Shown here piece by piece: positions 21,459 to 22,794 of a stretch of 30,450 bases of DNA (the first letter of the stretch is position 1; each line of letters starts with the position of its first letter). The translations under genes were made by a program, and so were the position numbers. Source of the stretch: Candidatus Kapaibacterium sp. (GTDB lineage: Bacteria > Bacteroidota > Ignavibacteria > Kapaibacteriales > UBA2268). The notes under the pieces were generated by a model. It worked only from the letters and a program-made list of their open reading frames with translations. It searched no databases and was not told the origin of the DNA. The stretch covers positions 1 to 30,450 of the forward strand of contig CALHRB010000339.1 of assembly GCA_938038165.1 (NCBI GenBank), given 5' to 3'.

Positions 21459-21971
21459 CTAAGGCTCAGGTTGAATTGGTTTGCCAGTTCTTGCTATACT
21501 AACAATACCACTTACAATAACCCATTTTCCTCCCTCTTTTTTCAGGGTGCGGTTGACTCGGAAAAAGTAATTTTCAGGTTCTTGTGAACCTGTCATTTTG
21601 TATGTAGTTGGGATTCCGTAAATAATTGAAGCGAGTGTGCCCCGACTATCCATTTGAATTGAAACATCACTCATTTCACCATAAGTCAAATTTTCAACGG
21701 CATTAAACTGTTCGGTAATAGCTTTTTTGAAATCACTCAAAGATTTAATGATTTCACTTGAGTCAGTTCCAAAAAATATAACATCTTCGGATAAATAAGG
21801 AACTAAACCTTCGAATCTTTCCTGCTCCATAGCTTTGTTGAAAGCTTTAATAGTGGCAATAATTTCTTCTTTTTCTTTTGCCATTTCGGCAGTAGTAAGT
21901 TCATCAGGTCTAGGTCCGCAATTATAAACTAAGAAAAGAGATATGGAAATAAAAAGTAAATATTTAAGCAT
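21459..21971 (-). CDS. NTF2/SnoaL-like family protein, possible lipoprotein
   Basis: Hydrophobic N-terminus ending in Cys18 (non-canonical lipobox). The body has the SnoaL-like pattern AFNKAME...YLSEDVIFFGT...RVNRTLKKEGGKWVIV. Confidence 0.7.
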   Translation of the reverse strand: MLKYLLFISISLFLVYNCGPRPDELTTAEMAKEKEEIIATIKAFNKAMEQERFEGLVPYLSEDVIFFGTDSSEIIKSLSDFKKAITEQFNAVENLTYGEMSDVSIQMDSRGTLASIIYGIPTTYKMTGSQEPENYFFRVNRTLKKEGGKWVIVSGIVSIARTGKPIQPEP

Positions 21972-22100
21972 AAGCTCACCTACTAAAAATTGTAAATTTA
22001 TATTTTTATAAATTATTTAAAATTACTTAAACTTAATATAAACATTTTTAACAAAAAACAGTAATTTTTTTTTAAAAAACAGGATTTTATATTTTAAAAG

Positions 22101-22117
22101 TTGGTATGTTAATTGCA
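22101..22117 (+). promoter_or_regulatory. Sigma54 (RpoN) -24/-12 promoter
   Basis: TTGGTATG-TTAA-TTGCA matches TGGCAC-N5-TTGCW with exact GG/GC spacing (GG 22103-04, GC 22115-16). It lies 35 nt upstream of the ATG, which has an AAGGA SD. Confidence 0.7.
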
Positions 22118-22151
22118 AAATTTATTAGTGTATTCAATATGAAAGGATTAT

Positions 22152-22493
22152 ATGAAAGTTCAAAAAATTGCAAATAACCAGGTTAACGAGATTGATTATC
22201 ATAGCTTTATATTAGAGAAGCCACACTCTCAAAAAAAGAATAAAGCGCTTGAACAAAAAAGAGAAATAACAGAATTTAAGCCCGAAGAATTGCTACAAAC
22301 ACTCGAGAAGCTGGAGAATAATAAACAAATGGATAATAGTCATCCACTTAAAAAATCTGAGAATGCCCCAATAGAATCTTTTCAAGAAGCAATGATTGAG
22401 CTTGGTTATTTTAAGTCTCCTTTCTTCAAAGTTAATGCTTCGGCTGCTCAAGCAAATTTGAGAAATGAAGATGTTCTCTATCTTTTCAAATAA
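22152..22493 (+). CDS. Hypothetical 113-aa protein ending in a flagellin-C-terminus-like motif
   Basis: SD AAGGA at 22143-22147; charged helical body; C-terminus AAQANLRNEDVLYLFK. Confidence 0.7.
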   Translation: MKVQKIANNQVNEIDYHSFILEKPHSQKKNKALEQKREITEFKPEELLQTLEKLENNKQMDNSHPLKKSENAPIESFQEAMIELGYFKSPFFKVNASAAQANLRNEDVLYLFK

Positions 22494-22495
22494 AT

Positions 22496-22526
22496 TTTGT
22501 TATTTATGAAATTATTGCTAATTTTG
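22496..22526 (+). promoter_or_regulatory. Bacteroidota-type housekeeping promoter (-33/-7) for rpmG
   Basis: TTTG(22496-99)-N19-TAATTTTG(22519-26) is an exact consensus match, 25 nt before the rpmG ATG. Confidence 0.65.
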
Positions 22527-22551
22527 TAATCTTAATTTTTTTAGGATTAAC

Positions 22552-22731
22552 ATGGCAAAGAAAGAAACAAGAATTATTATTACTCTTGAGTGTACCGAGG
22601 CAAAAAAAGAAGGTAAGCCAGCCTCTCGTTATACTACAACAAAGAACAAAAATAATACTCAGGAAAGATTGGAAATAAAAAAATATAATCCTTTTTTAAG
22701 AAGGCACACAGTCCACAAAGAAGTCAGATAA
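22552..22731 (+). CDS. rpmG: 50S ribosomal protein L33 (Zn-free, Bacteroidota-type); absent from the ORF track
   Basis: Hand translation gives [59 protein letters not shown] (59 aa); AGGA SD upstream. Confidence 0.97.
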
Positions 22732-22763: not shown

Positions 22764-22794
22764 AAAGGTCTTGTTGTTGCAAGACCTTTTTTTT
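22764..22794. terminator. Rho-independent terminator after rpmG (probably bidirectional)
   Basis: Perfect 10-bp stem AAAGGTCTTG-TTGTTG-CAAGACCTTT plus T-run, abutting the stop codon of the convergent gene. Confidence 0.85.

Follow-up and report, generated by a model that had tools for sequence, protein, structure and literature searches.

A small gene with a sigma54-type promoter and a flagellin-like C-terminal tail is tied to flagella in one family of Kapabacteria

A gene coding for a 113-amino-acid protein in Candidatus Kapaibacterium sp. (assembly GCA_938038165.1; 2.86 Mb, 396 contigs, 34% G+C, 94% complete) is preceded by a sigma54-type promoter element which is conserved and common to flagellar operons, is lost together with flagella, and encodes a protein whose tail resembles the C-terminus of flagellin. 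The gene is located on the forward strand at 22152..22493 (stop included) of the window, the whole 30,450-nt stretch (positions 1 to 30,450 of contig CALHRB010000339.1) that was analysed. The favoured reading, to which a probability of about 0.5 is attached, is that the product is a sigma54-class flagellar accessory of one Kapabacteria family, which binds the chaperone FliS as a mimic of the C-terminal D0 segment of flagellin (D0-C) and acts either as a competitor or as an exported regulator. Genomes, contigs and loci of the analysis are denoted below by G, C and L numbers, G000 being the host genome, and the taxonomic family to which the host belongs is denoted f1.

The gene is real, conserved and under purifying selection. 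The open reading frame (ORF) with the flagellin-like end AQANLRNEDVLYLFK, which an initial annotation had recognised from the DNA letters alone, is confirmed by the ORF list and by its homologs, the tail is conserved throughout a set of 74 family members, and the pairwise ratio of nonsynonymous to synonymous substitution rates (dN/dS) lies between 0.07 and 0.32. Eleven close homologs and about 78 clusters at 50% identity were found, nearly all of them 112-130 amino acids in length, and the gene occurs in a single copy per genome. Family members are annotated as 'hypothetical protein' in every source and the family is without a name; no Pfam or NCBIfam family is matched by the protein (Pfam to E <= 10), while the nearest cluster in the ESM Atlas is from Kapaibacteriota. 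Hits to FapA (E 0.71) and RcsB (E 0.088), as well as single-member matches to DUF327, ICAT and others, were taken as chance.

The element TGGTAT-GTTAA-TTGCA is found at 22102..22117 (forward strand), with the -24 GG at 22103-22104 and the -12 GC at 22115-22116 in the spacing GG-N10-GC. The sequence TTGGTATGTTAATTGCA occupies 22101-22117, the predicted transcript start lies near 22128, and no sigma70-type site was found upstream of the gene on its strand. A scan of both strands of the 2.86-Mb genome with the strict pattern TGGYAY-N5-TTGCW returned 19 occurrences against about nine expected, by estimate, from base composition, so that a single -24/-12 site is not proof of a promoter. The form TGG(C/T)A(T/C)-N5-TTG(C/T/A) is, nevertheless, kept 49-93 nt upstream of the start codon in all 18 homologous loci, which represent at least seven genera and in which protein identity falls to 37% and the flanking intergenic sequence has diverged. 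The well-spaced -24/-12 site claimed at the outset is accordingly borne out in 18/18 loci. Thirteen intergenic matches to the element with a downstream gene occur in the host genome, four of which precede flagellar operons: flgB-like-flgC-x-fliE-fliF-fliG (C256/L047), x-flgF-flgG-flgA (C306/L048), fliP (C4/L041) and a pair of tandem flagellins (C346). With the site conserved in every locus and the same site type before four flagellar operons, the link to sigma54 is stronger than was first claimed.

The host genome encodes three flagellins, FlgL, FliS, FliW, FliA and RpoN, along with about six sigma54 activator ATPases (six strong Sigma54_activat matches). The flagellin which is the first gene of the flagellin-fliS-fliD-flaG-x-flgM cluster on C197 has a sigma28-like promoter, TAAAGTTC-N11-ACCGAAAA (upstream of 2451, - strand, L001), and the tandem flagellins of C346 have the sigma54-like TGGCACACAACTTGT (upstream of 10924, - strand). 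These sequences suggest that flagellar genes of the organism are governed by a sigma54/sigma28 hierarchy, the small gene belonging to the sigma54 tier. The two types of flagellin promoter are reminiscent of how FlaA and FlaB are arranged in Campylobacter and Helicobacter. A Shine-Dalgarno-like AAAGGA is present at 22142..22147 (forward strand), 4 nt before the ATG, and AAGG(A/T) is kept at the ribosome-binding site in near relatives; this site had been called good, and while its presence stands it is fair rather than strong. An A/T-rich block, AAACATTTTTA(A/T)CAAAAAACA(G/A)TAATTTTTTTTT, is situated at 22058-22092, which places it roughly 10-45 nt ahead of the -24 element, and is near-invariant in near relatives; it could be an activator or integration host factor (IHF)-type site. 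In a comparison of the five sigma54-type promoters for a common upstream activator site, only AT-rich words were shared and no counterpart of the 22058-22092 block was found.

The distribution of the gene was determined in 151 genomes of the order, 38 of them in family f1, and in 301 genomes of the phylum. Within the order the small-gene family is present in 32 of the 38 f1 genomes and in none of 112 elsewhere, where many families are flagellate yet lack the gene; among the phylum genomes it is again confined to f1. Flagellin is encoded in 33 of the 38 f1 genomes, and CsrA likewise in 33. Four genomes without flagellin and CsrA (G076, G100, G103 and G131) have no match to the small gene, and a fifth, G133, contains a decayed copy in the syntenic place (L072:940-1420, - strand, of G133:C40). 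This remnant has an internal TAA and a broken N-terminus, its DNSHPL and AQAN motifs have become DNSMPL and VQAN, and its tail is lost. The adjoining gene, which codes for a lipoprotein of the SnoaL_3 family, is intact in G133, and persists in G100, G131 and G103, from which the small gene is missing. The losses are spread over five genera; related genomes are not independent samples. The proposed co-occurrence of homologs with flagella is upheld in that loss of flagellin is accompanied by loss or decay of the gene; flagellins, FliS, FliA and RpoN are present in the host genome, and flagellins, FliS and RpoN in the homolog-bearing genomes. Taken with the promoter, these losses nevertheless tie the small gene to flagella.

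The three flagellins of the host genome end in AQANQQPQAFLQLFR, AQANANPQAFLQLIRQ and AQANQNGAAFLNLIRG, and the small protein likewise carries the D0 tail motif AQAN-x5-(V/I/F)LxL(L/F/I)(R/G) at its extreme C-terminus. When every ORF of 40 amino acids or more in the genome is considered, the C-terminal pattern [AS]Q[AS]N...L[LF] fits only one flagellin and this ORF. The claim that the spacing of the tail matches that of flagellin exactly holds for one of the host's own flagellins (AQANQQPQAFLQLFR), in which 11 residues follow AQAN as in the small protein, but not for the other two, in which 12 do. Conservation of AQAN...VLxLF among the homologs was verified, with Q100 kept in 68 of the 74 members, A101 in 67, N102 in 71, L111 in 68 and F112 in 66. 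The family consensus AQANIxPEDVLSLF can be set beside the flagellin consensus AQANQxPQxFLQL(F/L/I)R, and shows the flagellin-type proline three residues past the asparagine. A profile-profile comparison (hhalign) set the family alignment against 17 flagellins of the order. The final ~55 residues on each side are matched through to the ends, with a score of 27.4 (P 0.0017), which none of 150 column-shuffled controls reached (12.2 +/- 2.2, maximum 21.0). Across hhalign and BLASTP, the part of the host's own flagellins with which the small protein aligns is their final 48-55 residues; in BLASTP, residues 71-113 are placed on 271-318 of one of these, end to end, with an E value of 0.37. When the family profile was searched against six-frame translations of G106 and G118, the best matches, through profile positions 75-115, were flagellin C-termini (E 0.10 and 0.16), and 22 of 100 language-model neighbours of the small protein are Flagellin_C clusters. 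Family-conserved residues I74, A80, L84, Q100, A101, N102 and L111 align with conserved flagellin positions. Judged from these alignments, the tail either mimics the flagellin C-terminus specifically or is a very old piece of it, and the resemblance is statistically secure for the last 15-17 residues only. A claim of homology reaching beyond the tail was dropped, as the score without the tail falls within noise and the BLASTP E value is 0.37.

Significant similarity over ~15 residues only, the lack of a Pfam match, the non-independence of related genomes and the placing of the small gene, in near relatives, beside the ribosomal protein gene rpmG, from which no terminator divides it, leave some room for the likeness to flagellin being coincidental. 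The gene would then contribute to a different aspect of motile life, or act in connection with the ribosome as a neighbour of rpmG, and its co-loss with flagella would come about through shifts in lifestyle. This is, however, quite improbable given that the promoter type is common to four flagellar operons, that the G133 copy has decayed beside an intact neighbour and that the adjacency to rpmG is gone in a 49%-identical homolog. The retrieval of flagellin from whole genomes by the family profile, and the correspondence of family-conserved positions to conserved positions of flagellin, likewise speak against coincidence.

Four segments can be distinguished in the protein. Residues 1-41 (22152..22274, forward strand) form a K/E/N/S-rich N-terminal part, fast-evolving by column counts and predicted by the AlphaFold2 (AF2) model to be disordered; its start, M-x-(I/V)-x-x-I, is conserved in the family, and the segment is a candidate export signal. 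Residues 42-66 (22275..22349, forward strand) comprise a conserved helix and the family-specific motif LENNxQxDNSHPL, in which P65 is kept in 72, L66 in all and H64 in 60 of the 74 members. Residues 71-113 (22362..22490, forward strand) resemble the D1/D0 C-terminus of flagellin in hhalign and BLASTP, with three short predicted helices, and constitute the predicted FliS-binding region of the complex model. Within this region, residues 99-113 (22446..22490, forward strand) hold the tail AQAN-LRNED-VLYLFK, which pattern search and hhalign with and without the tail identify as the significant part of the flagellin likeness. The AF2 model, built from 74 sequences, has a predicted local distance difference test score (pLDDT) of 72 and a predicted TM-score (pTM) of 0.30; no secondary structure is predicted for residues 1-43 (pLDDT 57-69), and helices are predicted at 44-55, 77-87, 90-99 and 105-112. 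Foldseek returned no match to this model in the PDB, a search which is uninformative here because the predicted structure lacks compactness.

Structure prediction of FliS together with the 113-amino-acid protein gave ipSAE scores of 0.45, 0.50 and 0.42, whereas the highest-scoring of three controls reached 0.01, and residues 71-113 were wrapped over the FliS bundle. FliS is known to wrap the D0-C segment of flagellin, and the geometry matches that of the predicted interface (PMC6070490). It also binds a non-flagellin client, FlgM (PMC8527033). The suggested FliS partnership surpasses its controls in the model, although the result is classed by the tool as 'weak support'; in its calibration, 58 of 80 solved complexes and two of 110 mismatches attained the mark applied, of which seven solved complexes and both mismatches did so at 0.60 or below. 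Binding of FliS by the small protein is thus a model-based proposal.

Under the favoured reading, sigma54 RNA polymerase would transcribe the small gene as well as one flagellin pair and the operons for basal body, rod and export gate. The resulting protein would be largely disordered, with its last 43 residues imitating the C-terminal D1/D0 segment of flagellin that wraps FliS, and, if the complex model is correct, would occupy FliS as a client-like ligand. By our own alignment with the tail of the Bacillus subtilis flagellin Hag, V108, L109 and K113 presumably correspond to Hag V299, L300 and R304. These three Hag residues are required for secretion (PMC6070490). The tail would thereby keep the valine, leucine and basic residues which B. 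subtilis flagellin needs for a FliS-dependent step at the FlhA export gate, and the small protein therefore probably competes with flagellin for both chaperone and gate. Export of the small protein itself, among the late substrates, is also conceivable, and by either route the timing and amount of flagellin delivery would be tuned. Competition at the export gate and export of the protein are both put forward as inferences.

A role in the filament itself, as a minor structural or terminal component which is exported and inserts its D0-C-like helix in the filament core or cap to end or modify growth, can also be envisaged for a protein whose tail imitates the segment forming the inner D0 tube, whose N-terminus, like that of exported axial proteins, is disordered and which is co-regulated with flagellar structural genes. 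Flagellin_N (PF00669) and the N-terminal D0/D1 helices are absent from the 113-amino-acid protein (Pfam, E <= 10), in agreement with the initial annotation, which had noted the missing flagellin N-terminal helices, and with the disorder predicted for residues 1-43. With both Flagellin_N and Flagellin_C absent there is no N-terminal D0/D1 helix for the coiled coil that holds axial subunits, most family members have extra residues past the tail and flagellate relatives manage without the gene. A filament component is consequently considered very improbable, and capping of filaments without an N-terminal D0 helix is unlikely.

Several observations weigh against the favoured reading of a FliS-binding flagellin mimic. 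When the AQAN tail (last 15 residues) is removed from both alignments the register is kept, but the hhalign score falls to 15.1, which is not significant against shuffles of 11.3 +/- 2.2. Flagellin_C (PF00700) matches neither the small protein, even at E <= 10, nor any of the 74 members; membership of this family, which had been raised for the protein, is refuted, and a six-frame search of the genome with PF00700 at the same cut-off returns only the three flagellins and FlgL. Searching the PDB sequences with the hidden Markov model (HMM) profile of the family gave no match to flagellin. Most of the distant members carry 2-12 residues beyond the LF, unlike flagellins, which further limits the claim of an exact tail spacing. 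Complex predictions that pass at 0.60 or below are, by the calibration of the tool, more often wrong than right unless the pairing was likely beforehand, and the model may have recognised the flagellin-like tail by recalling solved FliS-flagellin complexes. The most invariant motif of the family, DNSHPL, lies outside the predicted FliS interface. Flagellate G106 and G118 are without the small gene, which is therefore dispensable for flagella as such and is accessory. The C of the -12 element is frequently T or A in the relatives. The four flagellar sigma54-type promoters of the host all have TTGT in place of the canonical TTGC, and TTGA is found at a fifth match, which directly follows a sigma54 activator gene on C81. 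A variable -12 C is therefore normal for the lineage, in which bases other than C may be tolerated or preferred at this position. The organism is known from metagenomes alone, and no RNA sequencing run contains the sequence of the small gene, which is found in DNA runs only.

The position of DNSHPL bears also on the choice of partner. The protein might be a member of the flagellar regulon whose main partner is not FliS but FliW, in the FliW-CsrA-flagellin switch, or FlhA directly, or a sigma54 activator, and act as a feedback regulator through its flagellin-like segment or DNSHPL. FliW is encoded in the host and CsrA in the flagellate relatives, the invariant DNSHPL is unused in the FliS model, and hhalign sets N62 of this motif against the asparagine of flagellin NYNAAISR. 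In a passage of PMC5466977 that cites Titz 2006, an asparagine in the NYNAAISR region is reported as crucial for FliW binding. The alignment of the DNSHPL region is, however, not significant, and FliW maps mainly to the N-terminus of flagellin, which is absent here (PMC6070490, PMC5466977). A main partner other than FliS is rated as rather unlikely.

CsrA was not found in the 94%-complete host assembly. This is an assembly gap, as CsrA is encoded in 33 of the 38 relatives and is absent in exactly the five without flagellin. A role of the small protein as a substitute for CsrA at FliW was rejected, the flagellate relatives having CsrA. The fliW gene of the host (L067:1429-1854, + strand, of G000:C87) follows a motB-like gene and is itself followed by ~620 nt without a same-strand ORF of at least 50 amino acids and then by dnaA, with no csrA.

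The start of the protein, M-K-V-Q-K-I, resembles that of many FlgM proteins, and had been described as FlgM/FlaG-like. Its small size and disorder, the presence of FliA and the lack of an above-cut-off match to PF04316 in the 38 sampled f1 relatives would accord with the small protein being the FlgM of this lineage, a secreted anti-sigma28 factor. An 88-amino-acid ORF in the flagellin-fliS-fliD-flaG-x-flgM cluster (L008:1420-1686, - strand, of G000:C197) ends, however, in ...RINSGYYDKPEVMRELALKISRAFPPEE, a FlgM C-terminal signature, and is syntenic with the PF04316-positive gene of G062. Its match to the Pfam FlgM profile (E 0.76) is far under the cut-off; on signature and synteny it is likely the FlgM of the host. 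The small protein has no match to the FlgM profile (PF04316), nor does BLASTP detect similarity between it and the 88-amino-acid ORF. Because FlgM and FlaG are each encoded elsewhere in the genome, the small protein is neither, the reading of its start as homology falls away, and the FlgM alternative is effectively refuted.

A more elaborate form of the favoured reading would make the protein a secreted 'flagellin decoy' that serves as a checkpoint. Made in the sigma54 phase, it would be loaded on FliS before flagellin and exported first at the switch to late substrates, timing both the export of flagellin and the hand-over from sigma54 to sigma28, and it would be one of a series of recurrent, convergent tail-only mimics across phyla. 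This scheme is speculative and is judged unlikely.

Several known systems can be compared with the proposed FliS-binding mimic. In the complexes of the flagellin D1/D0 C-terminus with FliS (Aquifex FliC 478-518, PDB 1ORY; B. subtilis Hag, PMC6070490), as in the small protein, the last ~40 residues carry AQAN-x5-(V/I)LxL(F/L); the C-terminal region of the small protein is also predicted to form short helices, with a 43-residue predicted FliS interface. It differs in lacking the N-terminal D0/D1, the D1 core and Pfam Flagellin_C, and cannot polymerise as flagellin does; a proline-containing stretch, YFKSPFFK, replaces the continuous helix, and many family members have residues beyond the tail. 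FlgM of Salmonella likewise belongs to the flagellar regulon, is small and intrinsically disordered, and serves as a FliS ligand other than flagellin (a role predicted for the protein described here); export could couple activity to assembly (PMC8527033). The two are unlike in that there is no sequence similarity, that the host has its own FlgM and that the promoter of the small gene is of sigma54 type. Campylobacter jejuni FlaC is a secreted, non-structural flagellin which binds FliS but not FliW (PMC5466977). It shares with the small protein a flagellin-like nature outside the filament and the FliS route, predicted in the present case, but is a true Pfam flagellin of ~250 amino acids with N- and C-terminal D0-D1, whereas the small protein has a tail-like segment only. 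HP1076 of Helicobacter pylori is a FliS-binding co-chaperone with a folded helical bundle that contacts a different face of FliS (PMC7248283). Like it, the small protein would be a lineage-restricted, small helical protein binding FliS alongside or instead of flagellin, if the prediction holds; neither the search of PDB sequences with the family profile nor Foldseek against the PDB (model pTM 0.30) gave a relevant match.

Flagellin, FlgM, CsrA and HP1076 are known as ligands of FliS and FliW that govern the delivery of flagellin. A non-exhaustive search of the literature yielded no earlier description of a protein that retains of flagellin nothing but its FliS-binding tail. If the favoured reading is true, a stand-alone, chaperone-binding flagellin tail would represent a simple and genetically separate competitor for chaperone and export gate, and the finding would be classed as chaperone-client mimicry in the control of flagellar export. 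Such a competitor would here sit in the sigma54 tier of a sigma54/sigma28 hierarchy, within a Bacteroidota/Chlorobi branch that has received little study. The case provides a first sketch of the sigma54 flagellar regulon of Kapabacteria, with its unusual TTGT at -12. It is also a clean phylogenetic-profile example of a gene which decays upon the loss of flagella. Residues 71-113 are a short peptide suited to FliS binding studies.

The small gene is located away from any flagellar cluster, as had been observed at the outset, its neighbours being the SnoaL_3 lipoprotein gene, rpmG, a response regulator gene and an M20/OPT/AnmK run. The divergent SnoaL_3/NTF2-like lipoprotein gene (21459..21971, - strand) is adjacent in all contexts seen, and this adjacency is conserved without functional coupling. 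The rpmG gene (22552..22731, + strand), coding for ribosomal protein L33 (Pfam Ribosomal_L33 in the syntenic loci), begins 58 nt downstream. No terminator-like site was found between the small gene and rpmG (22494-22551), the sole intrinsic terminator-like hairpin being that after rpmG (22764..22789, + strand). L33 could thus be partly expressed by read-through from the sigma54-type promoter, unless rpmG has a promoter in the 58-nt spacer. Within the sigma54-type flagellar operons, a 100-amino-acid ORF between flgC and fliE (L047:3538-3840, - strand) and an 80-amino-acid ORF ahead of flgF (L048:2466-2708, - strand) have no Pfam match, and neither does the first gene of the flgB operon (140 amino acids), the N-terminus of which is FlgB-like by eye. 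Two close homologs of the small gene are found in records labelled 'uncultured Hyphomicrobiales bacterium', CAYYPE010000011.1 (L051) and CAZBNQ010000205.1 (L053). The former is the same locus as that of the same-genus G115, with upstream sequence identical to L025, and the latter is near-identical to the Candidatus Kapaibacterium contig L054; the Hyphomicrobiales label of both is probably a record error.

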